Of a stretch of DNA of 64,000 nucleotides, positions 20,613 through 40,153 are shown in pieces. Positions within the stretch are counted from its first letter, which is position 1, and every line of letters begins with the position of its first letter. The notes beneath the pieces were generated by a model. The model searched no databases. It saw nothing but the letters and a program-made list of their open reading frames with translations, and was not told where the DNA came from. The translations under genes were made by a program, and so were the position numbers. Source of the stretch: an uncultured Muribaculaceae bacterium (GTDB lineage Bacteria; Bacillota_I; Bacilli_A; RF39; UBA660); NCBI GenBank assembly GCA_964630365.1, contig CAZVUP010000005.1:1877-65876 (forward strand). Direction: 5' to 3'.

Positions 20613-21950
20613 ATGGATTTAAAAGAAAAAGCAAAGTTATTTGCGATAAAAGCACATATGGGTCAAATACGCAAAAGTGAACCTGATAAACCAATGATTA
20701 TGCATCCGATTTCTGTTGGGAATTACTTAGAGAGTTTAGGTTGTGATGAAGCAGTTGTTGCCGCTGGATATTTACATGATGTTGTTGAAGATACTAGTTA
20801 TACTATCGAAGATATAAGAAAACATTTTAATGATGATATTGCGGACTTAGTTATGGTTGCTAGCGAACCTGATAAATCATTATCATGGGAAGAAAGAAAA
20901 CTGCATACAATTCAGTCGACAAGATTATTACCATTGAGAAAAAAAATGGTTATTTGTGCTGACAAAATTGATAATTTAGAAGATATAATGCTTAAAATAC
21001 AAAAAAGTGGTGTACGGGATTTTTCAGCATTTAAACGTGGTGAAGAACAACAAAAATGGTATTATACAAGCATGTATGAAAGTTTAATATATGGAGAAGA
21101 TGAAAATTTACCTATATTCAAAAAATTTAAAAGTATAATTGAGGCTGTTTTTGGTGGCTATGAAAATTCATTTTTAAGGGATACAATATTTGCTGGTAAT
21201 GATTTATATTATGAAGAATTAAAAAAATTACATGCTCAAAAATTAGAATTACAAAAATTAAGATCTTTATCTCCTTTAGCTAAACCTTTTGTTATTGAAT
21301 TTTGTGGGACACCTAGAACTGGGAAAACTACTATAATAAATAATTTATATGACTTTTTAAAAAAAGGTAATTTTAATGTCCAAATTATTGAAGAATTTAC
21401 AACTTCGAAGTATTATAGAGAAAATTTAAAAAACAACTTTAAAGAAACTGAATTAAGTATTAGAGATATTGCTATTGTTGAAGAAGTATATAAACAATTA
21501 TTAGAAGCTTTAAATTCTGGAAAAGAAATAATATTGATTGATAGATCTATAAATGATAGACAAATTTGGAACTATCGAAGATATCTAAGGGGTGAAATGT
21601 CTGAGGAACAATATCTTGATCTTAGAGAAAGGTATAGTGCCCTATCTAAAGAATTAATAGATTTTCTAGTAATAACATATGCAGATTCTTTAACTGCACT
21701 AAGAAGAGATTATAATTCAAGTTTAGCTTTGGAAAATAGAAGTTTTTTAAATATTCCAAATTTAGATGAATATAATCAATGTTTAAATGATTTGGAAGCA
21801 TTATTTGAAGGTAGCGTTGATTGTTTAGCCTTTATTGATACTAGTAATGTAGATATGGCAGATGTTTCTATTGATGTTAGTAAAAAAATAATGCCAGAAA
21901 TGAGAAAAAAATATATTAAAAATTTTAAACAAGCTTATAATTTGAAATAG
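20613..21950 (+). CDS. Fusion: SpoT/Mesh1-type HD (alarmone hydrolase-like) domain plus P-loop kinase-like domain
   Basis: N-terminal: AIKAHMGQIRKSEPDKPMIMHPISV...AAGYLHDVVEDT (RelA/SpoT HD_4 signature). C-terminal: Walker A FCGTPRTGKTTIIN, later ILIDRS (dNK/thymidylate-kinase-like DR). Confidence 0.65.
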   Translation: MDLKEKAKLFAIKAHMGQIRKSEPDKPMIMHPISVGNYLESLGCDEAVVAAGYLHDVVEDTSYTIEDIRKHFNDDIADLVMVASEPDKSLSWEERKLHTIQSTRLLPLRKKMVICADKIDNLEDIMLKIQKSGVRDFSAFKRGEEQQKWYYTSMYESLIYGEDENLPIFKKFKSIIEAVFGGYENSFLRDTIFAGNDLYYEELKKLHAQKLELQKLRSLSPLAKPFVIEFCGTPRTGKTTIINNLYDFLKKGNFNVQIIEEFTTSKYYRENLKNNFKETELSIRDIAIVEEVYKQLLEALNSGKEIILIDRSINDRQIWNYRRYLRGEMSEEQYLDLRERYSALSKELIDFLVITYADSLTALRRDYNSSLALENRSFLNIPNLDEYNQCLNDLEALFEGSVDCLAFIDTSNVDMADVSIDVSKKIMPEMRKKYIKNFKQAYNLK

Positions 21951-23056: not shown

Positions 23057-24115
23057 ATGCATAGAAGTACATTTGTTGAGGTTAATTTAAAAAATTTAAA
23101 ATATAATGTTAAATCTTTAATTAATAAGTATAGCAATTATAAATATTATTTTGGTGTTGTTAAAGCTGACTGCTATGGGCATAGTGGATTAGAAACAGTA
23201 AAAACTATAATAGAAGCCGGTTGCAATTATCTTGCTGTTGCAACACTTGATGAGGCGTTAACTATAAGAAATGAAATAAAAGATATCCCTATATTATGTT
23301 TAAGTGTTGTAGATATTAAATTTATTCCAATATGTATAGAAAATAATATTACTATTACAATAAACAGTTATGATTATTTAAAAAATATAGATATTAATAA
23401 TAATAAATTAAAAGTTCATATTAAAATTAATACTGGTATGAATAGACTTGGTGTTAGTACAAAAGAGGAATTCAATATTGTATATGAATTAATAAGAAGA
23501 AAAGATTATGTATTAGAAGGAATATATACTCATATATATAATCCTACTGATGAAGTTGATACTTTAAAGCAGTTTAGAGAATTTGAAAAAATTACTAGTG
23601 ATATTAATTTAGCTGAAATTCCTATAGTACATGTCGGAGCAAGTGAAGCAACAGAACTTTATCCAAAAAGAGATTATGCAAATGGATGTCGATTAGGAAT
23701 TTCGATGTATGGATTAGTTGATTGTTCTGATATTGACTTTAAATCTACATTTAGTTTATATAGTAAAGTAATACAAATAAATGAAGTTGATCATGGAACT
23801 GTAGGATATAATGGTGCCTATAAAGTAAGTGGAAAAGAAAGGATAGCTGTTATTCCAATAGGATATGCTGACGGAATAATTAGAAAAAATACAGGTAGAT
23901 ATGTATATATCAATGATAAAAAATATAAAATAGTTGGTAATATTTGTATGGATATGTTATTTGTCAAAGTCGATGATTCTGTTAATATTGGGGATAAAGT
24001 TACTATTATAAGAGATATTAATCATATTAAAGAAATTGCTAAACATTTAGATACTATAACATATGAGGTAATCTGTTCTATTAGTAAAAGAGTTCCAAGA
24101 GTATATATTAAATAA
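23057..24115 (+). CDS. alr: Alanine racemase
   Basis: PLP-lysine motif GVVKADCYGHSG near the N-terminus and a C-terminal beta domain with ICMDMLFV; AAAGGAG RBS. Confidence 0.88.
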   Translation: MHRSTFVEVNLKNLKYNVKSLINKYSNYKYYFGVVKADCYGHSGLETVKTIIEAGCNYLAVATLDEALTIRNEIKDIPILCLSVVDIKFIPICIENNITITINSYDYLKNIDINNNKLKVHIKINTGMNRLGVSTKEEFNIVYELIRRKDYVLEGIYTHIYNPTDEVDTLKQFREFEKITSDINLAEIPIVHVGASEATELYPKRDYANGCRLGISMYGLVDCSDIDFKSTFSLYSKVIQINEVDHGTVGYNGAYKVSGKERIAVIPIGYADGIIRKNTGRYVYINDKKYKIVGNICMDMLFVKVDDSVNIGDKVTIIRDINHIKEIAKHLDTITYEVICSISKRVPRVYIK

Positions 24116-24116
24116 A

Positions 24117-24146
24117 AATAAAAACTAGTTAGCACTAGTTTTTCTT
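24117..24146. terminator. Bidirectional rho-independent terminator (alr / metallophosphoesterase gene)
   Basis: AAAACTAGT-TAGC-ACTAGTTTT hairpin flanked by A- and T-runs. Confidence 0.7.
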
Positions 24147-25720
24147 TATTTGTAATAAGTTAAAATATTAGATATCTCATTTTTTCTATCACTGGATTTT
24201 TGGATTGAACTAAGTATATTATGATATTCTTTATCACTTATAATGATGCGTAAGGCTTCTCCTAAAGATTTATTCATCCCAACAAAAGTTGGAACTTCAA
24301 TTTCTCTTTTTGCTAAGACTAATTCAGATTCTTTTGTTCTTTTAGAACTTTCATAAAAATATATATTTCTTAATAAAAATCTAATTAACATATTCTGTAA
24401 TTTTTCAATATCTATTTGAGAAGAGATGTCAACGCTTTCAATAATTCTATTTAGTTTTTTCAGTGCTAATATTTTCTTTTCATTATCTGTTTCGTAAATA
24501 TATTGTAAAAAGCAATTAATAATATCAGCTAATATATTAGTGGTTTGAATGCTAAATTTTGGATATCTAATTGATTCTGGATTATCTAGTCCAATTTTTG
24601 TAGCATATTTTTCTATTAGCGATTCCCCACTTGTCACTATAAAGTCATCTGATTTATAAAAGTCAGTAAGTAATATATTCATATCTAGATATCCTTTAAA
24701 TCTATTTTTCTTTGTAGCATAGATAAATGACAATATACAAATAAAATCTATCTTTTTATAAAAATCTGGATTAAATCCCTCTACTTGAACCAATTTTTCA
24801 TAAATCTCATTACTAAATTTTTTAAATAAATTTCTATTAGTTCCAACAGATTTTTTAGGATCAAATAGCTTAGTAACATCTAAGTCTGATGGATTAAAGA
24901 TTGTGTCATATTTTTTATTTAACATAAGTGATCCAAAAACTACAATTTCATTCTTGTATGGTGTTAATAATTCTAAAAGAACAGTATATAAATAGTCTGT
25001 AACTATTTTACTTTCTTGAAAGTGATTAAATTTACGCATTATCTCATGTAAAATTTCAAAAAACTCTTCTCCCAAAAATGGTTTATTGTTATTATTATAT
25101 CCTAAATATGATTTTGTTCTGCCAACTAATATCGGCCTATAATCAACCTGCTCACAAGCAACATTTTTTTCTCTTTCACCATTATTTATTAAAGTATGTT
25201 GATGGCCATGAAAATTTATCCCTGAATCTGAGTTTCTAAACTCTTCACACAAGAACTTATATAATATTGTATTAGGATGTTCATTACTTTCAACAGAAGC
25301 ATTTAATGGATAGTGAGAATAATAGTCACCATTAAATTTTACCGGAAAAAGAAATACATCTTCAAAGCCTGCTCTTAAATATATATCAGGCTTAGTTGAT
25401 ACTTCATGATTACCCATGATTAAAAACTTATGTCCATTAAGTTTTGAGACTAACTCCGCTAATCTTTCGCTTCCTACCTTAAAAGAAAAGTCTCCTAACA
25501 TAATGACAATATCATCTTCACCAACTACTTCATTGTGATTTGAAATAATATAGTCATTCATTGTTCTTAATGAAAGATCTAAATCAGTAGAGTTAAATAA
25601 TTCACTTCTTGTATGGCCGATTATATTCTTGTGGTCAAAATGTTGGTCACTTATAACAAAGACCTTTCTATCAGGATATTTACGTGCCAAAGTACTTGAA
25701 ATATCTTTAAAGTATCCCAT
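24146..25720 (-). CDS. Fusion: calcineurin-like metallophosphoesterase (N-terminal) plus Pol-beta-type nucleotidyltransferase-like domain, with a helical C-terminus
   Basis: MPE motifs VISDQHFDH, LGDFSF, GNHE, and HGHQH. Downstream: VVFGSLMLNKKYDTIFNPSDLDV (G-S...D-x-D) and YLDMNI (third acidic residue), as in minimal NTases. Confidence 0.6.
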   Translation of the reverse strand: MGYFKDISSTLARKYPDRKVFVISDQHFDHKNIIGHTRSELFNSTDLDLSLRTMNDYIISNHNEVVGEDDIVIMLGDFSFKVGSERLAELVSKLNGHKFLIMGNHEVSTKPDIYLRAGFEDVFLFPVKFNGDYYSHYPLNASVESNEHPNTILYKFLCEEFRNSDSGINFHGHQHTLINNGEREKNVACEQVDYRPILVGRTKSYLGYNNNNKPFLGEEFFEILHEIMRKFNHFQESKIVTDYLYTVLLELLTPYKNEIVVFGSLMLNKKYDTIFNPSDLDVTKLFDPKKSVGTNRNLFKKFSNEIYEKLVQVEGFNPDFYKKIDFICILSFIYATKKNRFKGYLDMNILLTDFYKSDDFIVTSGESLIEKYATKIGLDNPESIRYPKFSIQTTNILADIINCFLQYIYETDNEKKILALKKLNRIIESVDISSQIDIEKLQNMLIRFLLRNIYFYESSKRTKESELVLAKREIEVPTFVGMNKSLGEALRIIISDKEYHNILSSIQKSSDRKNEISNILTYYK

Positions 25721-25747
25721 ACCATAATCCCCCTAAATAGTGGCTAA

Positions 25748-25776
25748 ATTATACCAAAAAAATTGTATTTTGTCAA
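25748..25776 (-). promoter_or_regulatory. Consensus sigma-A-type promoter for the metallophosphoesterase-NTase gene
   Basis: Minus strand reads TTGACA (25776-25771), a 17-nt spacer, then TATAAT (25753-25748). Both hexamers match the consensus perfectly. Confidence 0.7.
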
Positions 25777-25807
25777 TTATGTAAACATGGGACAGTACTA
25801 ATGTAAA

Positions 25808-26518
25808 TTAATAATTTAATATCCATTCTATAATTAATTTTTTTATTTCATAATATTCTTGTTCTTCAAATTGCATATTTGCTATACAAAATCTTTTAGA
25901 TACTATATGTGAGCAAAACATACACTCATACAAATCAAAGCAATCCTGAATAAATAATGAATTACTTACTTTATTAGAACAAATAACATTATAACTATTA
26001 CTACAATCCTTAGAGTCGTCGCATCTAATACAGAAATTACAAGTACCAGATCTCTTTGATGCTAGTAAAAATTCACTATTACCACATGAATCACAATAAA
26101 TTATATTTTTAGAATCACTACAACCAGTACTTCTATAAACATTTTCACATCTATAAATAGTATCACTTTTTATTACATTAATAGAATCATAAACTCTTTC
26201 TGTTGTAGTTAAGTTAATCATATTCCATATATCAATTAATTCTTGTAGATTATTTATTTCTTTTTTAGGGATCATCCACCCTGTTTTTTTATCTTTCTTT
26301 TCCATATTTTTATTTGTTATAAATCTACCACTATTAATTGAATCAGCCCAAGTTATTTCATTTGTTGTTGAGTCATTTACTTGCTTAGGTAACTTAACAT
26401 CAAAGGCAAACTTTTCTAATAAAGTATCTATAGAAAAACTGTTTTCTCTTTCAAAAATACTTTTAAATATTTTATTAACAATTTCTAATGCGTATACATC
26501 ATTCATTTTTTCATACAC
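25808..26518 (-). CDS. Cysteine-rich protein of unknown function (236 aa)
   Basis: 13 Cys within about the last 100 aa, in short quasi-repeats (YCDSCGNS, CNFCIRCDDSKDCSNS, ECMFCSH). The start overlaps the upstream ATPase gene by 8 nt. Confidence 0.55.
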   Translation of the reverse strand: MYEKMNDVYALEIVNKIFKSIFERENSFSIDTLLEKFAFDVKLPKQVNDSTTNEITWADSINSGRFITNKNMEKKDKKTGWMIPKKEINNLQELIDIWNMINLTTTERVYDSINVIKSDTIYRCENVYRSTGCSDSKNIIYCDSCGNSEFLLASKRSGTCNFCIRCDDSKDCSNSYNVICSNKVSNSLFIQDCFDLYECMFCSHIVSKRFCIANMQFEEQEYYEIKKLIIEWILNY

Positions 26519-28367
26519 CTTCCTTATTGGTTGAATTAGATATTAAAATGTCTTTTAAATTTATATTACTATTTAACTTAAAACTAGCTTTAGAGTCATT
26601 GAATTTATTTTCTTTATTTCTATTTGTATTAGTATTCGTAATGTTTCTTTTAATTCTAGGAATACTTCGATAATCCAATGTATTCCCTTTAAATGCTGGT
26701 AGTAATATACCATTAGAATCTATTCTAGCAATGCATTCACGTGGTTGAAGTTCAGTTAATAATTTTATTTTTCTATCCTTAGAATCATCCAATGGTATTT
26801 TCATGTTAAAATTATCTACTAATATGTTAGCATCTAATTTTGATACTCTAAAGACGAAGTAGTTGATGACATTAGCAAATACAGAATCTTTTAATTTATC
26901 AGATATTTGATTAAAATATTGACTTGCTAATACTAAAGATAAATTATATTTGCGGGCTTCTGATAAAAATCTTGCTAAAATTGGATTTTCTACAACAGCA
27001 ACTTCATCAATAATAAATATAATATGTTGATTAATTGTTTTTTTCCCTATTATAGTTAATAATTGTTGCATTATTAATCCAGATATAGTTTTAGTAACTT
27101 TATCGCCTAGATTTGTTCTGTCTAGGGAGAATAAAGTTAAGAAATTTTCATGTATAGTATCAGTTAAATTTTTCTCATTTTGTTCTGAATTAAATACCGG
27201 TATCATTTCCATTTCATCTATAAAAGCTATGATTGGAGAGATAGCTTCACCATAAGACTTAGTTTTTAAATCATTGAAGTCTGAAAGAAAGAAATCTTTT
27301 ACACTAATTGGCAAGTCATATTTTAACTTTTTTAGTAGACTATTTCTATATTCTAAATCAAGGATTAATCTTCTTAAATTTCTGAAATTAAATGATTCAT
27401 TAATTAATAATAAGTATATAGCATGTCTTAAAACTCTTTCTAATTTTGAATTATATTGATCAGCAATTAATGATTTTAATAAATCTAATAAGAGTTCTGT
27501 TGATGCAACAACGTCTTCACTACTATTAATAAATAAATTAATACTGTCTAGACTACTTTTAAAATCAATAACCTTCCCTATACCACCTATGTCTTCTTCT
27601 AGTGCAGCATGTGGGTCAATAACTACTACTCTATATTTTGATTTGAGACTTTCATTTTTACTAATATTGTTAATTAGTAAACTGATGAATTTAGATTTAC
27701 CACATCCAGAGGAGCCTATTATAATTGAATGCTTATCAAAACTAAAATTATTCTGATTTAAATAAAACTTTCCTTGTAAATATGGAAATGTATCAACAGA
27801 TAATAAAGCATTATTAGAGTCAGTATTTAATAAGTGCAATATTTTATTTATCTCTAAGTATTTAGGTGGACTCTTATAAAAATATCTTTTATTCCCTTCA
27901 AAGTCTACCGATAATATACTTTTGGGAATAGTAAATAAACAATTATATTTTTTTATTTTATTGTTTTTAAGAAGATAAAAACTGACTTTTGATAAAATCT
28001 TATTTTCATATATTTTAAGAAATATAATTTCAAGGTATTTAAAAGCACCTTTATTTTTCACTTCACTATAGTTTATTATATCTATGATACTACTACCAAC
28101 TTTGGGTAAAGAAATTAATGTGCAAACTTGTTTAGGTTTTTTAATTCTTTTTACAGGTTTTAATAAGAAAGAATTTAAATTATTTATTGTCGATGGTAAA
28201 CTACAATTTGTTTCAACAAAATATCTTAGTTGATTTTTGTCATTTATGATAGTTATTTGCCAGTTTCTTAAAATGCCATTATAGTTTGATATAGTCTTAA
28301 TTAACTCTAACCATTCTTCTTTAGAGATATATTTCTTTGTCAAATATATTTCTGACGTTAACTCCAT
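26511..28367 (-). CDS. HerA/FtsK-superfamily P-loop ATPase (DUF87-like)
   Basis: Walker A IIIGSSGCGKSKF, VVVIDPHAALEE (compare HerA iDPhGEY), Walker B IIFIIDEVAVV, and LVLASQ, with an approximately 210-aa N-terminal beta-rich domain. Confidence 0.7.
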   Translation of the reverse strand: MELTSEIYLTKKYISKEEWLELIKTISNYNGILRNWQITIINDKNQLRYFVETNCSLPSTINNLNSFLLKPVKRIKKPKQVCTLISLPKVGSSIIDIINYSEVKNKGAFKYLEIIFLKIYENKILSKVSFYLLKNNKIKKYNCLFTIPKSILSVDFEGNKRYFYKSPPKYLEINKILHLLNTDSNNALLSVDTFPYLQGKFYLNQNNFSFDKHSIIIGSSGCGKSKFISLLINNISKNESLKSKYRVVVIDPHAALEEDIGGIGKVIDFKSSLDSINLFINSSEDVVASTELLLDLLKSLIADQYNSKLERVLRHAIYLLLINESFNFRNLRRLILDLEYRNSLLKKLKYDLPISVKDFFLSDFNDLKTKSYGEAISPIIAFIDEMEMIPVFNSEQNEKNLTDTIHENFLTLFSLDRTNLGDKVTKTISGLIMQQLLTIIGKKTINQHIIFIIDEVAVVENPILARFLSEARKYNLSLVLASQYFNQISDKLKDSVFANVINYFVFRVSKLDANILVDNFNMKIPLDDSKDRKIKLLTELQPRECIARIDSNGILLPAFKGNTLDYRSIPRIKRNITNTNTNRNKENKFNDSKASFKLNSNINLKDILISNSTNKEGV

Positions 28368-28402
28368 AATCCGTCACCTCGTAATAAAATATATCAAAAA
28401 TT

Positions 28403-28437
28403 GAAAATAAAAAACTGACTTTTTAATAATCAGTTTT
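28403..28437 (-). terminator. Rho-independent terminator after the AraC-family gene
   Basis: AAACTGA ... TCAGTTT hairpin followed on the minus strand by TTTTTTATTTT. It separates the AraC gene from the ATPase operon. Confidence 0.6.
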
Positions 28438-28443
28438 GTCAGT

Positions 28444-29238
28444 TTAAAAAATTGCAACTAAGAAATCTGTTATACCATCATGATAGTGTTCTAATTCAGG
28501 TATTTCTTTTAAATTATATTTGACTGATGGTAGAAATTCACCATAAAATTTATGGGATACTTCTTGGATATCTTTTGCATCTTGAGAATTAATTCTAAAT
28601 CTTAACCATTTACTTTTAGGTATTTTAATGTGCTCAAATTCCATAATTTCTTTATCATATAAACAGTAATATTTTTGACTTTCTTCGCGCTCAACATCAT
28701 AAGTAATCATGCCATATTGAATTCTACCATATTTATTTAGATATTTATCTTCGGTTATTTTAAAAAAGTTTGGAGCATCTTCACTAATTTTATCATTGCT
28801 TGTGGTAATACCTACTCCATATAAATTAATTTCATCAAGTGTAACTATTTCATAATCTAATTCCGTAGCAATACTTATGTCTTCATTAAAAACAATTCTA
28901 GGAAAATTTTTTAATTTAGTTTCAGTAGTGACTAGACTTGGTTTGATGCCATGAAACCGCTCAAATGCTCGTGAAAATGATGTAGCATTATCATATTGAT
29001 ATTTAACAGCAACATCTATCACTTTTAATTTACCTTCGTATAGGTCAAATCCTGCATTAGATAATCTTCTTTTTCTAATATATTCTGAGAGTGAAATACC
29101 CGCTATCATAGTAAATAATCTTTGCATAGTATAAACATTTACTCCTAACATTTTTGCTAGAATCTCATAACTAATTTCTTCTTCCAGATTATTATCAATA
29201 TACTCAGTTATTTCATTTAAACTTTTATAGATATTCAA
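28444..29238 (-). CDS. AraC-family transcriptional regulator with GyrI-like effector-binding domain
   Basis: N-terminal double HTH (LAKMLGVNVYTMQRLF...YDNATSFSRAFERFHGIKPS) and a C-terminal GyrI/SOUL-like domain. Confidence 0.8.
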   Translation of the reverse strand: MNIYKSLNEITEYIDNNLEEEISYEILAKMLGVNVYTMQRLFTMIAGISLSEYIRKRRLSNAGFDLYEGKLKVIDVAVKYQYDNATSFSRAFERFHGIKPSLVTTETKLKNFPRIVFNEDISIATELDYEIVTLDEINLYGVGITTSNDKISEDAPNFFKITEDKYLNKYGRIQYGMITYDVEREESQKYYCLYDKEIMEFEHIKIPKSKWLRFRINSQDAKDIQEVSHKFYGEFLPSVKYNLKEIPELEHYHDGITDFLVAIF

Positions 29239-29425
29239 AGTAAATCACCTATATAATATTGTATCATATTTTTTATTATTTGATTGAAATAACATTTTTT
29301 GTTTGATTATTTTTTGAAGTATATACTTTAAAGATTTATAGTAAATTATTCTTTGTATACTAGTTGCATAATATAAATTAAAGTATCTCCTTTATTAAAA
29401 ATATGTAAAATCATTGTTTGTTCGA

Positions 29426-29454
29426 TTGACTGTAGGAATTTAATATGCTATTTT
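29426..29454 (+). promoter_or_regulatory. Promoter of the small hydrophobic-peptide (toxin-like) transcript
   Basis: TTGACT (29426-29431), a 17-nt spacer, and an extended -10 TGcTATTTT (29446-29454). Confidence 0.5.
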
Positions 29455-29485
29455 GTGCTTAGGAACATTTAGTTGTTGGATGTCT

Positions 29486-29514
29486 ACCTTCTTATCTTCT
29501 AGAAGAAAGGAGGT
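29486..29514 (+). promoter_or_regulatory. Shine-Dalgarno-sequestering hairpin in the toxin-like mRNA leader
   Basis: ACCTTCTT (29486-29493) pairs with AAGGAGGT (29507-29514, one G-U) around the palindrome TCTTCTAGAAGA, which occludes the SD. Confidence 0.5.
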
Positions 29515-29522
29515 TTGATAAG

Positions 29523-29621
29523 ATGAAAGCTAAGACTTTTATTTTAAAAGTTTTAAAATTCATATGTATCATTTTATTCCTTTTAATCATTTTGATTATT
29601 GTAATAAAAAAAGGCATCTAA
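29523..29621 (+). CDS. Type I toxin-like small hydrophobic peptide (32 aa)
   Basis: Hand-translated: MKAKTFILKVLKFICIILFLLIILIIVIKKGI, a single TM helix with a basic C-terminus. AAGGAGG SD lies 9 nt upstream of the ATG. Confidence 0.5.
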   Translation: MKAKTFILKVLKFICIILFLLIILIIVIKKGI

Positions 29622-29727
29622 TCTTGATAGATTAAATGTCAACTCATTGATTGGGTAGACATTCAACTCGCAAAAACTGAATGTTCCCATTTTTATTTTA
29701 TGCAAGATTCCTTGCTACATACATAAT

Positions 29728-29806
29728 AACATAAAAAGGAACTTTTTTCAAGTTCCTTTGTCATTTCATATAGAGCGATTAAGCAACATCTTACGAACCA
29801 TAACGC
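29728..29806 (-). ncRNA. Predicted small RNA convergent with the toxin-like gene (candidate antitoxin RNA)
   Basis: Minus-strand promoter TTGAAA (29841-29836), 17-nt spacer, TATAAT (29818-29813). Hairpin AAAGGAACTT/AAGTTCCTTT (29735-29759) is followed by a U-run on the minus strand. No ORF. Confidence 0.35.
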
Positions 29807-29918
29807 AAAAATATTATATATGAAATTCTATTATATTTCAATGGGAGTATGGAGAATTTTGTTGTTTTATAGTATAATATATTCAAAATTAAACTTGATT
29901 TTATATAGGAGGTATAAA

Positions 29919-30335
29919 ATGAACGCAAATTTATGGACGCAATTACTTATAGCAATAGTTCCAGCACTTATTACTGGTGCTGGAAGTTTAATAATTGCAA
30001 TTAAGAAATGTAAAAATGAAATTAATACTCTTGAAACTAATAATAAACACGAAATAGAAAAATTAATGAAACAACATGAAATAGATCTTGAAGCATTAAA
30101 AGAAAAGCATAGACTTGATATGGAATCTAAAGAAAAAGAACATCAATTAAAAATTGAAGAAATAAAAGTCCAAAATGAACAAGAAATATTAAAAAGAGAA
30201 AAAGAATTATCTAATTCTGCAATGTATTCAATGATGGGCGATGCAACTAAGGATTTGTTTACTGGAATATTTAATTCACCAGAATTTAAAGAAGAGATGA
30301 ATAAAAAAATTAAAGAAGGATTTAATAAGAAATAG
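29919..30335 (+). CDS. Membrane-anchored coiled-coil protein, unknown function
   Basis: Start at ATG 29919 (AGGAGG RBS). One N-terminal TM helix (LLIAIVPALITGAGSLIIAI), then a K/E-rich helical region. Confidence 0.5.
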   Translation: MNANLWTQLLIAIVPALITGAGSLIIAIKKCKNEINTLETNNKHEIEKLMKQHEIDLEALKEKHRLDMESKEKEHQLKIEEIKVQNEQEILKREKELSNSAMYSMMGDATKDLFTGIFNSPEFKEEMNKKIKEGFNKK

Positions 30336-30384
30336 TGTTATATAATTATAAAAATAAGTTGGAATGGTTGGAGGTAATTATATA

Positions 30385-31131
30385 ATGAATAAAAAACAGA
30401 TTTTAGAGCAAGTTGATAAACTAATAATTATGTATAAAAATGGTGAGTTAGGTGGCGAAGTAATGCCTGAAGATGCTAATCCACATTTTGAAAAATCTAG
30501 TTTAGAAAATTATTTATATTTTACATTACCTATGGCTCTTAATTATCAAAGAAATTCTTATACTCTATGGGAAAGTGCTCTAAAAACTTATAATGATGAA
30601 GAAACAAGATTTGTATTTAATCCAAAATTATGCTTAGAGAAATCATTTGAAGAAGTACAATATGCTCTTACCAAATATAAAGTTGCTTTGCAAAAGCAAA
30701 AACAGACTGAAATATGGCTTGCATTGTGTAATACATTTGTAGAATTATTTGATGGTGATATAAGGAAATTATTTGATGAATTAGACAATGATGTTGAAAA
30801 AATTAGAGATTATATCCAGAAACAAAATAAAAAGAAATTTCCTTATTTATCTGGTACAAAAATATGTAATTATTGGATGTATGTGATATATCAATATACG
30901 GATAGAAGATATAAAAATATTGAAAAATTAACTGTTGCCCCTGATACTCATGTATGCAAGGCAACACTAAAATTAGGATTAATTAATGATGAAGAATTTA
31001 ATTCTAGTAATGTTCAATTAATCGTAATAGAAAGATGGCAAGAATTATTTAAAGGTACAAAATATAAACCAATTGATATTCATACTCCGCTTTGGTTATG
31101 GAGTAGAAATGGATTTAAGGAGGTAAAATAA
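30385..31131 (+). CDS. HhH-GPD superfamily DNA glycosylase-like protein
   Basis: FPYLSGTKICNYWMYV (HhH, G-x-K) followed by LTVAPDTHVCKATLKLGLI, which parallels endonuclease III LPGVGRKTANVVL...VDTHIFRV..R.G. No Fe-S cysteine cluster. Confidence 0.5.
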   Translation: MNKKQILEQVDKLIIMYKNGELGGEVMPEDANPHFEKSSLENYLYFTLPMALNYQRNSYTLWESALKTYNDEETRFVFNPKLCLEKSFEEVQYALTKYKVALQKQKQTEIWLALCNTFVELFDGDIRKLFDELDNDVEKIRDYIQKQNKKKFPYLSGTKICNYWMYVIYQYTDRRYKNIEKLTVAPDTHVCKATLKLGLINDEEFNSSNVQLIVIERWQELFKGTKYKPIDIHTPLWLWSRNGFKEVK

Positions 31132-31686
31132 TGAAGATGGGAAATTTAGAATTTAAACCTATAATAGAAAATAAAAATCTTGTTCCAAAGTGCATATATG
31201 ACTTAGTTAATGATTGGGATAATTTAGAAGAAAAAAAATATATTTATGGTTGCAGAAATTAATCCTAATTTTGCTGATGGAAATAAACTTTGTGAAGAAT
31301 ATAATATTGATAAAAAAATTGGGTTTAATTGTTTAATAGTTGAGTGTAAAAGAAATGAAGTTATTAAGTATTGTGCTTTAATAGTTCCTGTTGGATATAA
31401 GTATAATATGGGAAGTGTAGTTAGAAAATTTACAAACTCTAGAGTTGTATCTGTAGCTCCTCTTGATTATGTTTTAGAAAAAACACAAATGGAATATGGA
31501 AGTATCACGCCAATTGGTCTTCCAAAGGACTGGATGATATTGGTTGATCCATTAATAAAAGAACAAGAGCAAATTATAATTGGTGGAGGTTTAGTAAATT
31601 CTAAAATCTCATTACTAACAGAGTTATTTTTAAAGATTCCTAATGTTGAAATTGGTGATGGTGTTGCCAAAAAAATTATTGAGTAA
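31131..31686 (+). pseudogene. YbaK/ProX-type aminoacyl-tRNA editing domain protein, interrupted by a frameshift at an A8 tract
   Basis: ATG 31131 (overlapping TAATG with the upstream gene) opens a 43-codon frame. The +1 frame continues from the A8 run (31231-31238) as ...EINPNF...EYGSITPIGLP...IIIGGGLVNSKISL (tRNA_edit-like). Confidence 0.5.
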
Positions 31687-32071
31687 TATCTTTTATAAAG
31701 GGTATGGGAATTCCCATAGTAGAATTTATGCGGGAGTATAAATTCAGTGCTGGCTAGACAAGGGCTTTACTCCCACTTTGTGATAAATATAAAAAGAGGA
31801 TTAGATTATTTTGATAATTTTTTCCTCTTTTTAGTTAGTAAAATAAAAACTTACGAACTTTAATTAGTCCGTAAGTTGTCTTCAAATGGAGCGAGTGTCG
31901 TAGATATCTACAACTCTTTCTCTAGTGATATGATAAATATCACTCACTACTAATAATATAGCATATTTTTAGAGAATAATAAACAAAATTATAAACAAAA
32001 ATGTAAAAATTTGATATAATCATAATAGCGAATATCTTATGATATTCTCTTTTTTTATAAGGAGGGTAAAA

Positions 32072-33043
32072 ATGTTCTCGAAAAAATTTTTAGACAAAGG
32101 ATTTGTATTTTTAGGTGTAGGAATTGTCTCATTTGGAAATATATTGACAGAAATTATACTTAATTATTTTAATATTGATATTCCACAATATAATATTTAT
32201 ATTTGCTTAATTGTTGGAATCTTATTAATTATTGTTGGATTAATAATGTATTATAAGGAGTCAAAAGAAAATCATACTTTATCAATTATAGGTTTAGATA
32301 ATATGAACTATATCACCAAAATTAAAAATCCGCTTACTATTAATATAATTGATGATTGTAAAAATATTAAAACAAGTAATTCTAAATCAATAATATCTAG
32401 TTACGTTAAAAATATTAAAGAAAAAATTAGTAATTATATTTCATATAAAATTTCTTATTTTGGCGTTGCACCTTTACCTTTTGTTGCTATAGCAGGAAAA
32501 TATTATAGAAAAGTAAACATTATAAAACATTATGAATATCACCAAAAGGATGATAAAATTTTACCATTGAAGATAAAAAAATTATTTTTTAATGAAAAAC
32601 TAAAATGTGAAGAAAAGAACAATAATAGTAATATTGCAGTTATTACTATAGAAACAACAACTAGAATTAATGATGAAGATTTAAAACAATTTAGAAATGC
32701 TAATGTTTTTAAATTTTACCTAGAAGATACCAGAACTAATGCTATTACTTATGAAAAACAGCTAGAAGAATATTCAGAAACAATTGCAGATACTATTTAT
32801 AAAATTAGTAAAACAAATATTGAAAAAATTTATATATTAGGTGCATGCCAAAGTTCTTTAGTTTTTGAAGTGTTTAGAAGATTAAATGATAATAGAATTA
32901 AAGAAATAATTGTTTGCAATTACAAGGCTAAATCAAAAAATAAATACAACTGGGGGATTAGCATTTACAATGAAAATGATATTGAAAAATATGTAGAATT
33001 AGGAAGTGATATATGTGGACAAAATCAAAAATCTAATGAATAA
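32072..33043 (+). CDS. 2TM-SAVED-like CBASS effector candidate
   Basis: Start at ATG 32072 (GGAGGG RBS). Two N-terminal TM helices, then an approximately 250-aa domain with two Rossmann-like units (ISYFGVAPLPFVAIAGKYY; IYILGACQSSLVFEVFRRL), as in SAVED/CARF. Confidence 0.5.
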   Translation: MFSKKFLDKGFVFLGVGIVSFGNILTEIILNYFNIDIPQYNIYICLIVGILLIIVGLIMYYKESKENHTLSIIGLDNMNYITKIKNPLTINIIDDCKNIKTSNSKSIISSYVKNIKEKISNYISYKISYFGVAPLPFVAIAGKYYRKVNIIKHYEYHQKDDKILPLKIKKLFFNEKLKCEEKNNNSNIAVITIETTTRINDEDLKQFRNANVFKFYLEDTRTNAITYEKQLEEYSETIADTIYKISKTNIEKIYILGACQSSLVFEVFRRLNDNRIKEIIVCNYKAKSKNKYNWGISIYNENDIEKYVELGSDICGQNQKSNE

Positions 33044-34364
33044 TTTTTACTATAATGAAGTTATACTATCGAATGATAAAGTTACTGAGTTACGTGAAAA
33101 GAAAAGTATAAATATAACTAGATTAAAAGATGGAATAAATAAATATAATGAAGATAATAATACCGATTATATATTATACGAAAGTTTAGAACAAGGAAGT
33201 ATTGCAATGTCCACTGCAATTGAACCAGAATACGATGACTTTGATATAGATGTTGCGATAATATTTGAAAAAGAGAAAATACCATCATCGACTGATGAAA
33301 TGAAAGACTTAGTAATAGATTTTTTAAAACCATATAATTATTATTTTAAAGAAAATCCAAAAAAGAAAAACAACTGTATAAGAATTGAATATCAAGATAA
33401 TTATCATATAGATTTTGCTGTTTATAGAGTTTCAAATGATTATTATGAACATTGTGGTTTGAATTGGACAGAAAGGAACCCTAGAAGTATAAATAATTGG
33501 TTTCATGAACAAAACAATTTGTATGATGACAAACTAAGAAAAATCACACGATTGATAAAGTATTTTTCTAAGACTAGAAAAGATTGGGATATATGTGGTG
33601 GTTTTATAATAACTATCCTTGTAAATGAGGCATTAGCAAATATAACATTAGATGTAGATATAGATAAATTACTACTAGATGTAATAAAATCTATTTCCAA
33701 TAGGATTAATTTTAATACTTCTGTTAAAAATCCTACTAATAATCAAGAATTGATAAATGATGATAAAAACAAAAAAAGATTAAAAAACTTAAAAGAAAAA
33801 TTGGATGAACATATTAGTGATATTGAAAATGCTTATTTAAATAATGATGTTGAAGATGTAAAAAGAAAATGGAATAAGTTTTTTAAAACGAATTATTTTA
33901 CATCAGATTCTCAACAAAGAAGTAGATGTGAAGACAATGAAATGTTTATCGAAAATATATATAGTATTGATAAATTAATGCCAATAAAGTTTGAAATAAA
34001 ATGCCAAAGATATATTTCAAAAGATAACTTTAAAAACTCTACATATGTTAATTGCTTTGACAATCAAAAATTTAGTATAACTCAAAATAGAGATGAAAAA
34101 TTATGCTTTTCGATAGATACAACTATTCCTAAACCATATATTTTGTTATGGAAAATAAAAAATAATGGTAATTATGCTATAGAAAATAATAGTTTACGTG
34201 GAGAGATATACTATGGTAATAATTTAAACTCTTTTGCAGATGATCCACATAGTTTTAAACGATTTGAAAGTATATCGTTTAAAGGAAATCATTATGTAGA
34301 ATGTTATTTAATCAAAAATAATAAGTGTATTGCTAAATCACGATTTAATGTTAATATTGAATAA
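33006..34364 (+). CDS. CD-NTase (SMODS) family nucleotidyltransferase with C-terminal beta-rich extension
   Basis: LEQGSIAMSTAIEPEYDDFDIDVAIIF (G-S ... D-x-D) and NYHIDFAVY (third Asp), then RKITRLIKYFSK. The C-terminal part, LLWKIKNNGNYAIENNSLRGEIYY, is possibly an AGS-C sensor domain. Start is uncertain (GTG 33006/33015 or ATG 33036). Confidence 0.65.
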   Translation: MIYVDKIKNLMNNFYYNEVILSNDKVTELREKKSINITRLKDGINKYNEDNNTDYILYESLEQGSIAMSTAIEPEYDDFDIDVAIIFEKEKIPSSTDEMKDLVIDFLKPYNYYFKENPKKKNNCIRIEYQDNYHIDFAVYRVSNDYYEHCGLNWTERNPRSINNWFHEQNNLYDDKLRKITRLIKYFSKTRKDWDICGGFIITILVNEALANITLDVDIDKLLLDVIKSISNRINFNTSVKNPTNNQELINDDKNKKRLKNLKEKLDEHISDIENAYLNNDVEDVKRKWNKFFKTNYFTSDSQQRSRCEDNEMFIENIYSIDKLMPIKFEIKCQRYISKDNFKNSTYVNCFDNQKFSITQNRDEKLCFSIDTTIPKPYILLWKIKNNGNYAIENNSLRGEIYYGNNLNSFADDPHSFKRFESISFKGNHYVECYLIKNNKCIAKSRFNVNIE

Positions 34365-34451
34365 TTAAAGGAAATTTAGTGGTTTTTTAAGACATTTAAC
34401 ACTTTTTATGATAGAATAATACTTGAATTAATTTTCAGGAGGGATTTAGAT

Positions 34452-35993
34452 ATGAATTATTTAGCGAATATCAAAAGAATATTAGATAGTGATGCAGGAT
34501 TGATAATTGAAGATATGTCTCAACCAGATATTAAAAAAGTTGTAGATAATAGATTTTCTCTTATTAAGCAAAGTGTTGAACGAGTTGAAAATAAAGATGA
34601 TAATTTTTACACTGAATTAGTAAAATTAATAAGTAATTACATTAATGAATTATGTGATAAGAAAATTGAAGATTTTCCTATTATTGTTTTTGATGAAAAT
34701 AGTGAAGAAATTGCACAAGAATATGATGAACTTAATTCAAGTGATATGTTGAATCTAACACATGCAAATAAGGAACTATCAAAAAAATTATTTGAATATG
34801 TATGTAGTATTTTAGAAGTTAATAAAGATGTTAAGTTAGATATTGAAACATTAAAGAAACTATTAAATCGTAATCCAAAATTATTTACTTTATCGGTAGA
34901 AGAAAGTTATTTATATAGAACTTTTGATTATAAAAAATTAGTTAAGATTATCAATGAAAATGGAACATTAGAAAAATCAAATATTAGCATAGATGACATT
35001 TACCAAATATTATTTGATACTTGTCAACTTAATAATCAAGATGTTTTTTGCGGTTTAGTAACACCAGAACAATTTAGTAAAAATCACAAAAAAATAGATG
35101 AAATGTTAAGCTGTTGTAATGCAAAAGCATTTGTCGAAATAACTAATATAATAACACGTAATTTTGATAAAAAATTTGATAGATTAAGTTTTGCAAAGAA
35201 TAGAAGCAAAGATAAATTTTGTGAAAGATTAATAATTGAATTGCTACACTCTTATGTTAAAGATGAAGATTGTAATTTAATTCATCAAATTCTTACAGAT
35301 TCTGAAATTCAAATTGATTATGATAGATATTATGCAGATTATATAGGACAAACTAATTTAAAATCACTTATTGCATTAAGTAAAAATCCTATAATTATAA
35401 AAGACCTTTTAAGCAAAGAACAAAATGTGCAAGATTACTATTGGCATGGTGAATCTGGCATACAATTATTTAGATTATATGGAATTATTGGTGACTACGA
35501 GAAAGCACTAACTAATTTCAATGAAAAATATAATTATGGATGTGATTACACAGAAGACTTTGATGATGATTTTAATAGAGTTGGACATACTTATGGAGGC
35601 TGGGATTACGGAGATTCCGTTGCTGTATTTGTTAATGATGTTTGTACTTCATTTAATGAACAAAATACTGATTATTCAATGCGCAAAGCAATTATTAATA
35701 AGATTTTGAATAATGATAAAGTAAAGTATATTAATTTAGAAGAAACATTACCTGTTGTGCAAGAAGTATTATCAGATGAAGATTTTAAAGCATTATTAGA
35801 TACTTTAGTTTTAAAAAGAAATTCTGGTAATTTAGGGTTTATTGTTTCAGAAGAAAATAATGAAGATAGTTTTTTCAATCGCTATGTCATTAGATTGGCT
35901 AGTGAAGAAGAAGTTCAAGATTATTTATCATCATTGAATAAAAAAGAAAAAGCTAAAGTTTTAAGTTTAAATCCTACTAAAAAAGATGATTAG
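34452..35993 (+). CDS. Hypothetical protein (513 aa), no recognised domain
   Basis: AGGAGGG RBS and a long ORF directly downstream of the CD-NTase-like gene with no terminator between them. Its stop overlaps the convergent mob gene stop by 4 nt. Confidence 0.5.
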   Translation: MNYLANIKRILDSDAGLIIEDMSQPDIKKVVDNRFSLIKQSVERVENKDDNFYTELVKLISNYINELCDKKIEDFPIIVFDENSEEIAQEYDELNSSDMLNLTHANKELSKKLFEYVCSILEVNKDVKLDIETLKKLLNRNPKLFTLSVEESYLYRTFDYKKLVKIINENGTLEKSNISIDDIYQILFDTCQLNNQDVFCGLVTPEQFSKNHKKIDEMLSCCNAKAFVEITNIITRNFDKKFDRLSFAKNRSKDKFCERLIIELLHSYVKDEDCNLIHQILTDSEIQIDYDRYYADYIGQTNLKSLIALSKNPIIIKDLLSKEQNVQDYYWHGESGIQLFRLYGIIGDYEKALTNFNEKYNYGCDYTEDFDDDFNRVGHTYGGWDYGDSVAVFVNDVCTSFNEQNTDYSMRKAIINKILNNDKVKYINLEETLPVVQEVLSDEDFKALLDTLVLKRNSGNLGFIVSEENNEDSFFNRYVIRLASEEEVQDYLSSLNKKEKAKVLSLNPTKKDD

Positions 35994-37378
35994 AAACCTA
36001 TTTCATAATCATCTTTTTCTTTGTCTTTATTTTTATCATTTTCTTTATTCCAAATATAATCATCTTGAATTGATTGAATAGTTTTATCACTAAATATATT
36101 ATGAGTATATAAATCTTTTGAAAAATTCCAGTAATTTTCTCGTTCTTTTTCTTTACTAAACATTTTATCTTTTATAAACTTAACTAATCTATCAAATAAA
36201 TTTTCAAAGAAATTAATCGTGCTTTGTAGTTTAGAATTTTTTTCTTTAAGATCATCAATCTCATCTACTTGTTTATCTATCTTTTTTTCAAGAGATTTAA
36301 CTTTAATGTTTAAGGCATCATTGTTTTCAGTTAGTATTTTAACTTTTTCTCTGTTTTCTTTTAATTCAGTTTCAACATCATTTAAGGTAATAGATAACTT
36401 TTGCATTTTCTTATATTCTTTATTAGTTGAATCTACTTGCTGAATAAATTTATCAATTTTATCTTTATCACCTTTATTTAAAACATATTTATCTTTGTTA
36501 GTGAAAGTAGTTTTTAAATTACTAACTATATTTTTAACCTCATTAGAATTATTATCTAGTTCTAGTGATTTTTTATTGGCTATTTCTAATCGTTCTTTAT
36601 TTTTAGATAATTCTTCTTGCATTTCAATATAGTTTCCCATATCTTTAACATTTATATCTTTATTTCTACCTTTTTGTTTAGTTTTTAAAACATTATTTAA
36701 GCCATATTCTTTATTAAAACTAGCAATACATAAAGTTCTCATTTTATCTTGTAGTTCTATTAACTTTGTTTTTGTGAATACATCAGATTTACCAACTTGT
36801 TTAGACATACCATTTTTGCTTTTATATTTAATTGGAACACCAACAATATGCATATGTGGACTAGTTTCATCATAATGAATAATTGCACTTGCTATTTTAA
36901 AGTTAGGAATTAAAGTTTCTAAATCTTTAACTTGTTCTTTATATACATTAGACATTTTGTGCTTGAATTTCTCATCTTTAGTATCCCAATACTTTTTATC
37001 TCCAAGTTCAATAATAATTTCACAAGCCAAATCATTTTTAGAATTATCACTAATCTTTTTAAAGTAGTCATCTATCTTTCTATCATCTCTAGTTTGTTTA
37101 GAATTGTATTCTAATCTTGCTTCTTCAAATTCATCTTTATATAATTTTTGAACATCATTATATAGAGAAGTTGTTCCTCTAACAATTTCAATTAAGTGTT
37201 GTTTGTCATCATACTTACGATAATTATGTTTATCAACACGAGATAATTGTCTAGCATTTTGTATTGCATTATTTGATAGAGAAGTATTTCCACTAGCATT
37301 AGATTTTGCTCTTGCTCTTGATACATTTTTTCTATTCTTATCACTACCCAAATGCAGTGAGTATGCAAGTTCTGGCAT
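35990..37378 (-). CDS. MobV-family (Mob_Pre) relaxase
   Basis: Motif III HxDE..PHxH is present as IIHYDETSPHMHIVGVPI, with an N-terminal HL..D..R region and a long C-terminal coiled coil typical of MobV/Pre proteins. Confidence 0.8.
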   Translation of the reverse strand: MPELAYSLHLGSDKNRKNVSRARAKSNASGNTSLSNNAIQNARQLSRVDKHNYRKYDDKQHLIEIVRGTTSLYNDVQKLYKDEFEEARLEYNSKQTRDDRKIDDYFKKISDNSKNDLACEIIIELGDKKYWDTKDEKFKHKMSNVYKEQVKDLETLIPNFKIASAIIHYDETSPHMHIVGVPIKYKSKNGMSKQVGKSDVFTKTKLIELQDKMRTLCIASFNKEYGLNNVLKTKQKGRNKDINVKDMGNYIEMQEELSKNKERLEIANKKSLELDNNSNEVKNIVSNLKTTFTNKDKYVLNKGDKDKIDKFIQQVDSTNKEYKKMQKLSITLNDVETELKENREKVKILTENNDALNIKVKSLEKKIDKQVDEIDDLKEKNSKLQSTINFFENLFDRLVKFIKDKMFSKEKERENYWNFSKDLYTHNIFSDKTIQSIQDDYIWNKENDKNKDKEKDDYEIGF

Positions 37379-37608
37379 ATATAAATCACATCCTTTCTTT
37401 GAGCTTATTTTGTTTATGACAAAATATTTAACCCCCTAGGTATTTTGACACAAGTATCAAAATAACCTCGTGGGCTAGGGATTCCCTAGAACCCTTTTGA
37501 AACTTATTTCGTAATGTTTTAAAACTTCGTAATAAAACAAAACTACATAAGTTTATAAAATGCTATCGCCACTTTCATTTACTTCGTAAACAAAACGTGC
37601 CACGCATT

Positions 37609-39540
<1,932 letters not shown>

Positions 39541-39729
39541 TCAAAAAAAGAGAGACAAAAGTAATAGAAATATATACTACTACCTTTATCTCTCTAACTT
39601 TTACTATCAAAATAAATTTTTTTCTTATTCCCATAATGCATAACCCCCATTAATACATTTAAGAATATCTCTTTCAGTTGCTTTATATAATAATATTTTT
39701 GTCTTAAAAAGTCAATAGTTAGCGAAATA

Positions 39730-40023
39730 TCAGGCATTTAGTAGATTTTTAATATAATCTTCAAGTTCCACAAGTTGAATCTTTTTATTTAGACTACCAA
39801 CATAAATATCAGTAGAATAATTAAATGCTAGAAAAGTAGTATCTTTAACAATAATCTTATGTGGTTCTATGTAAGATAGATTAGTCTTATCAATTTTTCT
39901 AATACTACCATTTATAATAGTAGGTTTGATATGACAAAACTCACATATAAATTCTAGTCGTTGTTTAAGATTGCCTTCTATTTCTAGTTCTTGTGTAATA
40001 ATCTTAATCACTACAAACACCAT
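39730..40023 (-). CDS. Hypothetical protein (97 aa)
   Basis: Small ORF upstream of the recombinase gene, inside the element. No recognised motif. Confidence 0.35.
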   Translation of the reverse strand: MVFVVIKIITQELEIEGNLKQRLEFICEFCHIKPTIINGSIRKIDKTNLSYIEPHKIIVKDTTFLAFNYSTDIYVGSLNKKIQLVELEDYIKNLLNA

Positions 40024-40032
40024 CCTTTCTTT

Positions 40033-40110
40033 TAAGGATGACTTTTTAATAGAACTTCCAAGCTGAAACGCGAGAGTTCGACAAACAAAAAATCATCTCA
40101 ATATGAGATG
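40033..40110 (+). pseudogene. Decayed tRNA-Gly-like relic, inverted relative to the intact tRNA-Gly
   Basis: TTTAAT-AGAAC-TTCCAAGCTGA-..ACG.G.G-GTTCGA-...ATCATC matches blocks of the adjacent tRNA (TTTAATGGTAGAAC[CTCAGCC]TTCCAAGCTGACTACGTGGGTTCGATTCCCATCATC), with a 7-nt deletion and 3' decay. Confidence 0.4.
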
Positions 40111-40112
40111 AT
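40083..40112 (-). terminator. Rho-independent terminator downstream of tRNA-Gly
   Basis: ATCATCTCA-ATA-TGAGATGAT hairpin (40092-40112), followed on the minus strand by TTTTTTGTTTG. Confidence 0.65.
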
Positions 40113-40153
40113 ATCTATCGTAAATGTTCGAAAAGTTCGAACAGAAACGTCAC

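Follow-up and report, generated by a model that had tools for sequence, protein, structure and literature searches.

This study was concerned with two adjoining genes on the minus strand of a 64,000-nucleotide (nt) stretch of contig CAZVUP010000005.1, which is referred to as the window and has a composition of about 26% GC. The first gene encodes a HerA/FtsK-type ATPase and the second encodes a cysteine-rich protein, referred to here as the partner. The two genes form a genuine, unnamed and obligately syntenic module, which has been kept together across uncultured small-genome Bacilli and many Saccharibacteria-like loci. The literature searches found no description of the ATPase-partner pair. 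An AraC-family regulator gene precedes the pair in the Bacilli lineage, and the three genes are called the trio below. The features of the trio are listed here with their lengths in amino acids (aa), and the residues of the partner are numbered in its 232-aa form. AF2 denotes AlphaFold2.

28444..29238, minus strand: AraC-family regulator, 264 aa, first gene of the conserved trio in the Bacilli lineage
28404..28437, minus strand: hairpin (10-bp stem, 7-nt loop) followed by a T-run, from the sequence and RNAfold
28388..28396, minus strand: extended -10 promoter-like element TGATATATT (consensus TGATATACT) upstream of the ATPase gene, aligned by eye
28375..28380, minus strand: Shine-Dalgarno sequence of the ATPase gene, GAGGTG, within a conserved CGAGGTGACGG block
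26511..28367, minus strand: ATPase open reading frame (ORF), 618 aa, a soluble FtsK/HerA-superfamily P-loop ATPase
27687..27716, minus strand: Walker A, GSSGCGKSKF, with G-x-S-G-x-G-K-S-K invariant in the alignment
27594..27629, minus strand: DPH motif after Walker A, VVVIDPHAALEE
26991..27023, minus strand: Walker B, IIFIIDEVAVV
26943..26960, minus strand: EARKYN, aligning with E-G-R-K-Y-G of solved HerA proteins
26919..26936, minus strand: ATPase motif LVLASQ
26529..26558, minus strand: C-terminal tail peptide of the ATPase, LKDILISNST
25808..26506, minus strand: partner, 232 aa (the mechanical ORF extends to GTG 26518)
26207-26506, minus strand: partner residues 1-100, N-terminal alpha/beta domain, confident in the AF2 model
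25871-26206, minus strand: partner residues 101-212, putative hexad-repeat beta-solenoid with a Ser/Cys ladder
25811-25870, minus strand: partner residues 213-232, C-terminal helix
25808-25810, minus strand: stop codon of the partner gene

The pairing was established in a scan of GTDB with one genome per species, which returned 398 relatives. The locus analysis utilized the best 80 of these 398, all of which were uncultured low-GC Bacilli (labelled 'Tenericutes', 'Mollicutes', 'Erysipelotrichaceae', Ca. Coprovivens and Ca. Ventrenecus). The ATPase gene lies directly upstream of the partner gene at every one of the 80 species loci with sufficient contig, the pair is present as one copy at each locus sampled, and an AraC-family gene is found upstream of the ATPase gene in most of them. 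The partner is 73-92% identical to its window counterpart, the ATPase 50-82% and the AraC protein 52-86%. A first-pass annotation of this DNA, made from the sequence alone, had placed the pair in an accessory context, which does not agree with its presence in at least 80 species-level genomes at this level of partner identity. The trio alone is conserved at these loci. The 562 flanking ORFs within 5 kb fell into 437 clusters, the largest of which was common to 7 loci. Among the 137 immediate neighbours ordinary genes prevail (ABC transporters, NUDIX, Ham1, HD_3, CTP synthase, UDG and SMC_N), and only a minority of the 137 matched PADLOC models, the commonest being mad3 with 5. Across the loci the housekeeping neighbours include NUDIX, Ham1, pyrG, GatC, RecX, rpoBC and uvrB. 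Thus, the enrichment in defence islands that the first-pass annotation had raised was not seen among these neighbours. The partner exceeded a flanking orthologue in identity in 59 of 75 locus pairs, with means of 80.7% versus 63.4% and a mean of 69.6% for the ATPase, and it was somewhat less conserved than CTP synthase (92% versus 98.5%). Purifying selection on the partner, as judged from these sequences, appears strong. No relatives of the pair were found in the phage, plasmid and IMG/VR collections.

The partner family as a whole comprises about 300 clusters at 50% identity, and members at about 50% identity carry the source names Candidatus Saccharibacteria and Patescibacteria. A metagenome scan with distant partner members as seeds gave 80 loci with GC contents of 0.22-0.59, 65 of which had room upstream, and a same-strand ATPase gene adjoins the partner gene in 63 of these 65. 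In the Saccharibacteria-like loci a full-length ATPase orthologue of 663-680 aa with 37-38% identity is located directly upstream, and L084 and L086 have the ATPase gene in this position. The same gene order occurs in L089, L092, L093 and L094, where the partner relatives are 24-35% identical. The gene-neighbourhood comparison proposed in the first-pass annotation therefore bears out the synteny of the two genes, both in the species set and in the metagenome loci.

Several loci show variant arrangements. In L089 (2602-8726) six tandem partner paralogues of 241-244 aa, each 31-34% identical to the window protein, lie behind a single DUF87 ATPase. Two partner copies are present in L093, L116 and L145. 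An archaeal-looking contig, L091 (3900-7092; aS21, EF-1 beta and deoxyhypusine synthase), encodes two tandem proteins of about 530 aa with no HerA-like ATPase near them; one belongs to a cluster whose representative has two copies of the partner domain, and its neighbour is 526 aa long. In L111 (2491-7327) the partner gene lies downstream of two ORFs of 591 and 684 aa that by their sequence look like ABC exporters and take the place of the HerA-like ATPase. In L087/L088 (6123-8699), an identical sequence in two assemblies from a related low-GC lineage, a frameshift within Walker A (GGSRNRKIK) splits the ATPase, whose C-terminal 65 residues are also missing, and the partner is intact and 62% identical.

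The junction of the two genes was measured in 19 related loci. In each of them it falls between -8 and +9 nt, which makes tight coupling a feature of the family. In the window the first-pass annotation had described a 236-aa ORF that overlaps the ATPase gene by 8 nt. This ORF is present mechanically, beginning at GTG 26518, but translation most likely begins at ATG 26506, giving a 232-aa product whose start is 4 nt past the TGA of the ATPase. This assignment was made for two reasons. First, nearly all listed homologues of the partner are 231-234 aa in length, and 232 is the most frequent. Secondly, the Shine-Dalgarno sequence AAGGAAGG is spaced 11 nt ahead of ATG 26506, whereas it abuts GTG 26518. 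Coupling is still compatible with the 4-nt spacer. The ATPase stop codon (26511-26513) is the sole TGA among 25 long ORFs in the window, of which 16 end in TAA and 8 in TAG. An alternative genetic code for this TGA was considered and rejected; TGG encodes Trp and the usage of AGG and CGG is ordinary, so the genome is not recoded.

Walker A, the DPH motif, Walker B and LVLASQ, all named in the first-pass annotation, were each located in the 618-aa ORF at the positions listed above, and the placement of the protein in the HerA/FtsK superfamily is upheld by a DUF87 match above cut-off and by anti-phage HerA chains as the top PDB sequence matches. The Pfam DUF87 score is 31.4 bits against a cut-off of 23.2, with only residues 210-254 aligned, and relatives score 36-42 bits. 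Matches to more specific families are weaker. For example, the ATPase scores 19.7 bits against the NCBIfam HerA_antiphage model (NF042943), whose cut-off is 800, and so falls short of that full-length family. The sequence score for TrwB_AAD_bind is 27.1 bits (above 20.5) with no single stretch passing, TraG-D_C is matched weakly at 19.3 (under its cut-off of 22), NCBIfam EccCb gives 23 bits against 346, and TraD gives 18 bits, far under its cut-off. The FtsK_SpoIIIE domain has no match in the window ATPase, and the relatives reach 17-19 bits, below 24. A profile of the ATPase searched against PDB sequences identified the anti-phage HerA proteins 8xau (E 2e-4) and 8wiv, with similarity near Walker A and the RKY region only. 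PADLOC gave partial matches to mad8 and HerA, the former (6.6e-17) confined to the P-loop core. The MADS defence system was considered and rejected, as no further mad gene was found among the scanned window ORFs beside this mad8-like core.

The ATPase has no transmembrane segment, its maximum 19-residue Kyte-Doolittle value being 1.47, at Walker B. This lack of an anchor, together with the lack of conserved type IV secretion system (T4SS) or relaxase neighbours, argues against the conjugative VirB4/TraG/TcpA clade, which the first-pass annotation had named as an alternative. The N-terminal domain (approximately residues 1-205), where HerA proteins have a HAS barrel, is family-specific, and its profile found nothing in the PDB. 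An AF2 model built from a shallow alignment had a predicted local distance difference test (pLDDT) score of 39.9; at this low confidence (pLDDT about 40) it places a helical insert between Walker A and Walker B. Long-form ATPases of about 620-680 aa, found in the Bacilli lineage and in Saccharibacteria-like loci, have a low-complexity linker followed by the conserved tail peptide, with the consensus L-x-[DE]-[IF]-L-x-x-Q-S-S-S-R-K in long forms only. Short-form ATPases of 570-585 aa are without it. The tail peptide may be a docking motif.

The partner is not matched by any model in Pfam (E<=0.01), NCBIfam or PADLOC, the Pfam pentapeptide and hexapeptide repeat models included. PHROGs gave a single weak match to phrog_15341 (4e-6), a family of no assigned function. 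A profile of the partner found nothing significant among PDB sequences, with TmAFP appearing only at E 9.2. The AF2 model is usable (pLDDT 79.5), with low confidence in the Cys-rich residues 140-210, and the Foldseek check proposed for it produced no match below E 0.8 in the PDB and BFVD. Thus, the earlier statement that the partner resembles no known effector type agrees with the negative results in Pfam, NCBIfam, PADLOC, the PDB and BFVD, and no characterised housekeeping family was matched. No nuclease, NADase, protease or pore signature was found in the partner with Pfam, NCBIfam, PADLOC or the alignment, and the alignment contains no invariant catalytic-type residue. The partner has no transmembrane segment, and no signal peptide is evident in its sequences. 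It appears to be structural or adaptor-like and looks non-enzymatic from its sequence.

The quasi-repeats noted in the C-terminal part of the partner are real. From about residue 100 the AF2 model has short strands at six-residue spacing, with a C-terminal helix at residues 215-231, and the repeat unit in the alignments is S/C-x-x-[VI]-x-x. The autocorrelation of Ser/Cys peaks at 6, 12 and 18 residues, with values of 0.40, 0.50 and 0.39 in the window protein and 0.37, 0.38 and 0.31 family-wide. The repeat and the autocorrelation fit a narrow beta-solenoid in which a Ser/Cys ladder would point inward. The count of 13 Cys was also correct, and all 13 are within residues 120-207; close relatives have 10-15 and distant relatives 4-11. 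Only C198 and C207 are invariant Cys in the family (C168 and C189 are conserved at about 90% in the closer set), so the Cys richness is a local elaboration and not a family trait. Family-wide, C207 and N210 are invariant and S114, C198, I208, Q212 and Y218 are near-invariant. The remaining Cys of the window protein alternate with Ser, Val, Ile or Trp in relatives; thus a poly-Cys metal site does not define the family, and the suggested metal-binding protein, for which an invariant set of at least four Cys/His ligands would be expected, was not borne out. The existence of tandem paralogues and of fused proteins with a doubled domain points to oligomerisation of the partner.

The AraC protein combines a DNA-binding domain, which matches Pfam HTH_18 (2.8e-16), with a ligand-binding domain, which matches Cass2 (6.5e-11) and GyrI-like (9e-9). 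The spacer of about 75 nt between its gene and the ATPase gene is strikingly conserved and contains the hairpin with its T-run, the extended -10 element and the ribosome-binding site. About 40 related loci retain the stem arms of the hairpin, and L023 carries one compensatory change in them. A consensus terminator scan did not call the hairpin, and the RNAfold fold of the 79-nt intergenic region was no better than shuffles (z -1.33). The hairpin is probably an AraC terminator and/or an operator palindrome, and the extended -10 element, by its sequence, would act as a promoter. The first-pass annotation had proposed a terminator that insulates the pair from the AraC gene; a hairpin and T-run do occur at that place, but the AraC gene and the spacer are part of the conserved trio. 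An Rfam scan of 24000-30500 gave no match. A MerR regulator with a GyrI-like C-terminal domain is found beside the module in three higher-GC loci (L092, L139 and L167), and the AraC and GyrI-like combination is also found in L149 and about 19 low-GC metagenome loci. Two unrelated DNA-binding domains thus share one sensor domain beside the module, which is moderate evidence for ligand-controlled expression.

The surroundings of the trio in the window contain the following additional features.

32039-33043: SAVED-2TM effector gene of a cyclic-oligonucleotide-based anti-phage signalling system (CBASS) operon in the island described below
33006-34364: CD-NTase gene with AGS-C, same CBASS operon
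35990-37378: Mob_Pre relaxase gene, in the island
37609-39531: large serine recombinase gene, in the island
40154-40227: tRNA-Gly
24146-25776: gene for a Metallophos protein of 524 aa, downstream of the pair, with Metallophos at residues 19-162 followed by an unmatched C-terminal region of about 320 residues
further downstream genes: alanine racemase, BipA and DnaE

An island of about 11 kb (29.3-40.1 kb, within 29300-40230) lies on the upstream side of the AraC gene and includes a phage-like ORF in addition to the CBASS, relaxase, recombinase and tRNA-Gly genes listed. It is probably a mobilisable element integrated beside tRNA-Gly; no clear att repeats were found for it. A different integrase/Rep element occupies the same side of the trio in L001. 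The trio itself is chromosomal and merely adjoins the mobile island. The Metallophos gene was considered as a part of the module and rejected. It has a perfect TTGACA-17-TATAAT sigma-70 promoter of its own, extended by TG (25748-25776), and does not accompany the pair at other loci. The setting given in the first-pass annotation, between a mobile element and a phosphoesterase-nucleotidyltransferase fusion, is correct for the recombinase and Mob_Pre element and for Metallophos, but the nucleotidyltransferase half was not confirmed. At 20613-21950 the window also encodes a RelA/SpoT-type HD domain (HD_4) fused to a P-loop kinase-like domain (AAA_28/dNK-like), and in L005 and L024 a homologue of this fusion likewise occurs within a few kb of the trio.

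The pair is kept together in the Bacilli and in Saccharibacteria-like contigs, so a conserved cellular machine is likelier than a mobile anti-phage system. The same direction is indicated by the single copy per locus, the slow evolution, the lack of a catalytic partner, the lack of copies in the phage, plasmid and IMG/VR collections searched and the mostly housekeeping surroundings. The reading put forward here, which is tentative and somewhat short of probable, is that the pair is a regulator-controlled, chromosomally inherited motor-adaptor machine acting on a DNA, nucleoprotein or protein target. In such a machine the ATPase would form a ring motor by analogy with its superfamily, and the partner, probably as a dimer, would serve as an adaptor or substrate-recognition subunit. 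Docking would occur through the conserved N-terminal domain of the partner and the region of its C-terminal C-x8-C-I-A-N-x-Q...E-E-Y helix, and possibly also through the tail peptide of the ATPase. A small-molecule signal, either xenobiotic or stress-related, would be sensed by the GyrI-like domain and turn expression on. The machine would then remodel or protect its target, with no phage-triggered killing of the cell.

Several points weigh against the motor-adaptor machine. First, among solved structures the ATPase is closest to anti-phage HerA proteins. Secondly, the ATPase model stands at a pLDDT of about 40, and the ring and the docking are predictions. Third, MerR and GyrI-like neighbours occur in only 3 higher-GC loci. 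Fourth, the trio adjoins a CBASS-carrying element in the window. In addition, in L084 (5190-8711) a 215-aa ORF and the pair are located between rpsG and fusA of the str operon on the opposite strand, and the pair looks like an accessory insertion there; the fusA-rpsG gap contains no gene in Southlakia epibionticum ML1. Lastly, with only about 300 clusters at 50% identity, the family is sparse among the candidate phyla radiation. The transposon-sequencing data for Southlakia epibionticum (PMC10633639) contained no candidate for the pair by gene length.

The principal alternative is an undescribed anti-phage or abortive-infection system scaffolded by HerA, for which SIR2-HerA and DUF4297-HerA would be the models and in which the solenoid protein would join an ATPase hexamer as a novel sensor or effector. 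In PDB and PADLOC the best similarities are with anti-phage HerA proteins, and the two-gene architecture is like that of SIR2-HerA and DUF4297-HerA. The apparent str-operon insertion in L084, the variable flanks, the CBASS island that adjoins the trio in the window and the sparse distribution among candidate phyla radiation lineages would also fit, and the tandem expansion of the partner (six copies in L089 and two each in L093, L116 and L145) is reminiscent of diversified sensors. However, the partner lacks a nuclease, NADase, protease or pore signature and any invariant catalytic-type residue, and the pair is very highly conserved, whereas SIR2-HerA homologues inside one Streptococcus species are only 18-22% identical. 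No phage, plasmid or IMG/VR copies were found, and housekeeping families dominate the 137 neighbours, a minority of which have PADLOC matches (mad3 being commonest, with 5). Also, defence systems usually spread across phyla, and the sampled distribution of this module is limited to small-genome lineages. Thus, the first-pass proposal of a new HerA-partnered defence system stands in so far as the pair is unnamed and obligate, but with no copies in the phage, plasmid and IMG/VR collections and with mostly housekeeping neighbours there is little positive evidence for defence, and this role is considered doubtful.

The motor-adaptor reading can also be drawn more widely, as a hitherto unrecognised ATP-driven machine typical of ultra-small or reduced-genome prokaryotes, with a new-fold Ser/Cys-ladder solenoid and induction via drug-sensing GyrI-like regulators. 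The machine would span the candidate phyla radiation, the RF39/RFN20-like Bacilli and an ATPase-less, fused form on an archaeal-looking contig, and would represent, for example, a new target-protection or nucleoprotein-remodelling class that matters for a host-dependent lifestyle. This wider form, taken as a whole, is unlikely.

A substrate-translocation module, in which the motor would be coupling-protein-like or EssC-like and would move the solenoid proteins as cargo or chaperoned substrates, is improbable. The weak TrwB_AAD_bind, TraG-D_C, EccCb and TraD matches point in this direction, as does the low-confidence modelled insert between Walker A and Walker B, which resembles that of VirD4-type proteins, and the reading would explain paralogue arrays with up to six partners behind one ATPase. 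Against this, neither protein has a transmembrane segment, the partner sequences show no evident signal peptide, the family scores are far under the curated cut-offs, and no secretion-system, relaxase or membrane-channel genes are conserved near more than 140 loci. A domesticated or selfish mobile-element remnant, for example an addiction-type pair that does nothing for the cell, is highly improbable: integrase/Rep (L001) or recombinase/Mob (window) elements do adjoin the trio, flanks are variable and the L087/L088 ATPase is frameshifted in Walker A, but the adjoining elements differ between genomes with the trio outside them, the partner is under strong purifying selection, and no phage, plasmid or viral copies were found.

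The significance of the pair is that two annotation-less proteins are among the better conserved in an uncultured Bacilli lineage that is widespread in the gut, and that they recur in many Saccharibacteria-like contigs. If the proteins form a stress- or drug-induced motor-adaptor machine, they would represent a new functional type in the HerA/FtsK superfamily and would open a way into the biology of small-genome symbionts. Should they prove to act in immunity, the HerA system that they form would be unusual in being vertically fixed and in having a partner that is not an enzyme. On either reading the pair is a well-defined, testable two-gene target.

Comparison with known systems shows partial likeness to several. 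SIR2-HerA (Nezha/Gao19) and DUF4297-HerA are also two-gene units with a DUF87/HerA-type ATPase, and Walker A and E-x-R-K-Y of the window protein align with 8xau and 8wiv. However, the similarity is limited to about 50 residues near Walker A plus the RKY region, the partner is neither SIR2, a nuclease nor a known enzyme, and the module is lineage-conserved and regulator-linked, not patchy. The HerA-NurA end-resection machine shares a HerA-superfamily motor, a dedicated co-transcribed partner and a chromosomal, housekeeping-like context, but no NurA-like nuclease is present here and the partner has no catalytic signature. The VirD4/TrwB/TraD coupling proteins are comparable in the weak TrwB_AAD_bind and TraG-D_C similarity and in a long helical insert between Walker A and Walker B, modelled at low confidence. 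Unlike them, the ATPase has no N-terminal membrane anchor, and its loci (more than 140) have no conserved T4SS or relaxase neighbours; the Mob_Pre gene of the window is in the non-conserved island about 7 kb from the pair. The ATPase differs from FtsK/SpoIIIE and EssC/EccC in having neither an above-threshold FtsK_SpoIIIE domain nor a transmembrane segment. Qnr, and MfpA with the MfpB GTPase, are pentapeptide-repeat topoisomerase protectors. They offer an analogy only, in a short-period beta-solenoid with a C-terminal helix and in the pairing with an NTPase, beside which the GyrI-like regulators found here may be set. The module differs from them in its hexad Ser/Cys ladder, in having no Pfam Pentapeptide match and in the extra N-terminal domain of the partner. 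Lastly, Rob/BmrR-type regulators combine an AraC or MerR DNA-binding domain with a GyrI-like sensor, and these exact architectures stand beside the module. Regulators of this type usually control efflux pumps, whereas the adjacent operon here encodes an ATPase-solenoid pair.

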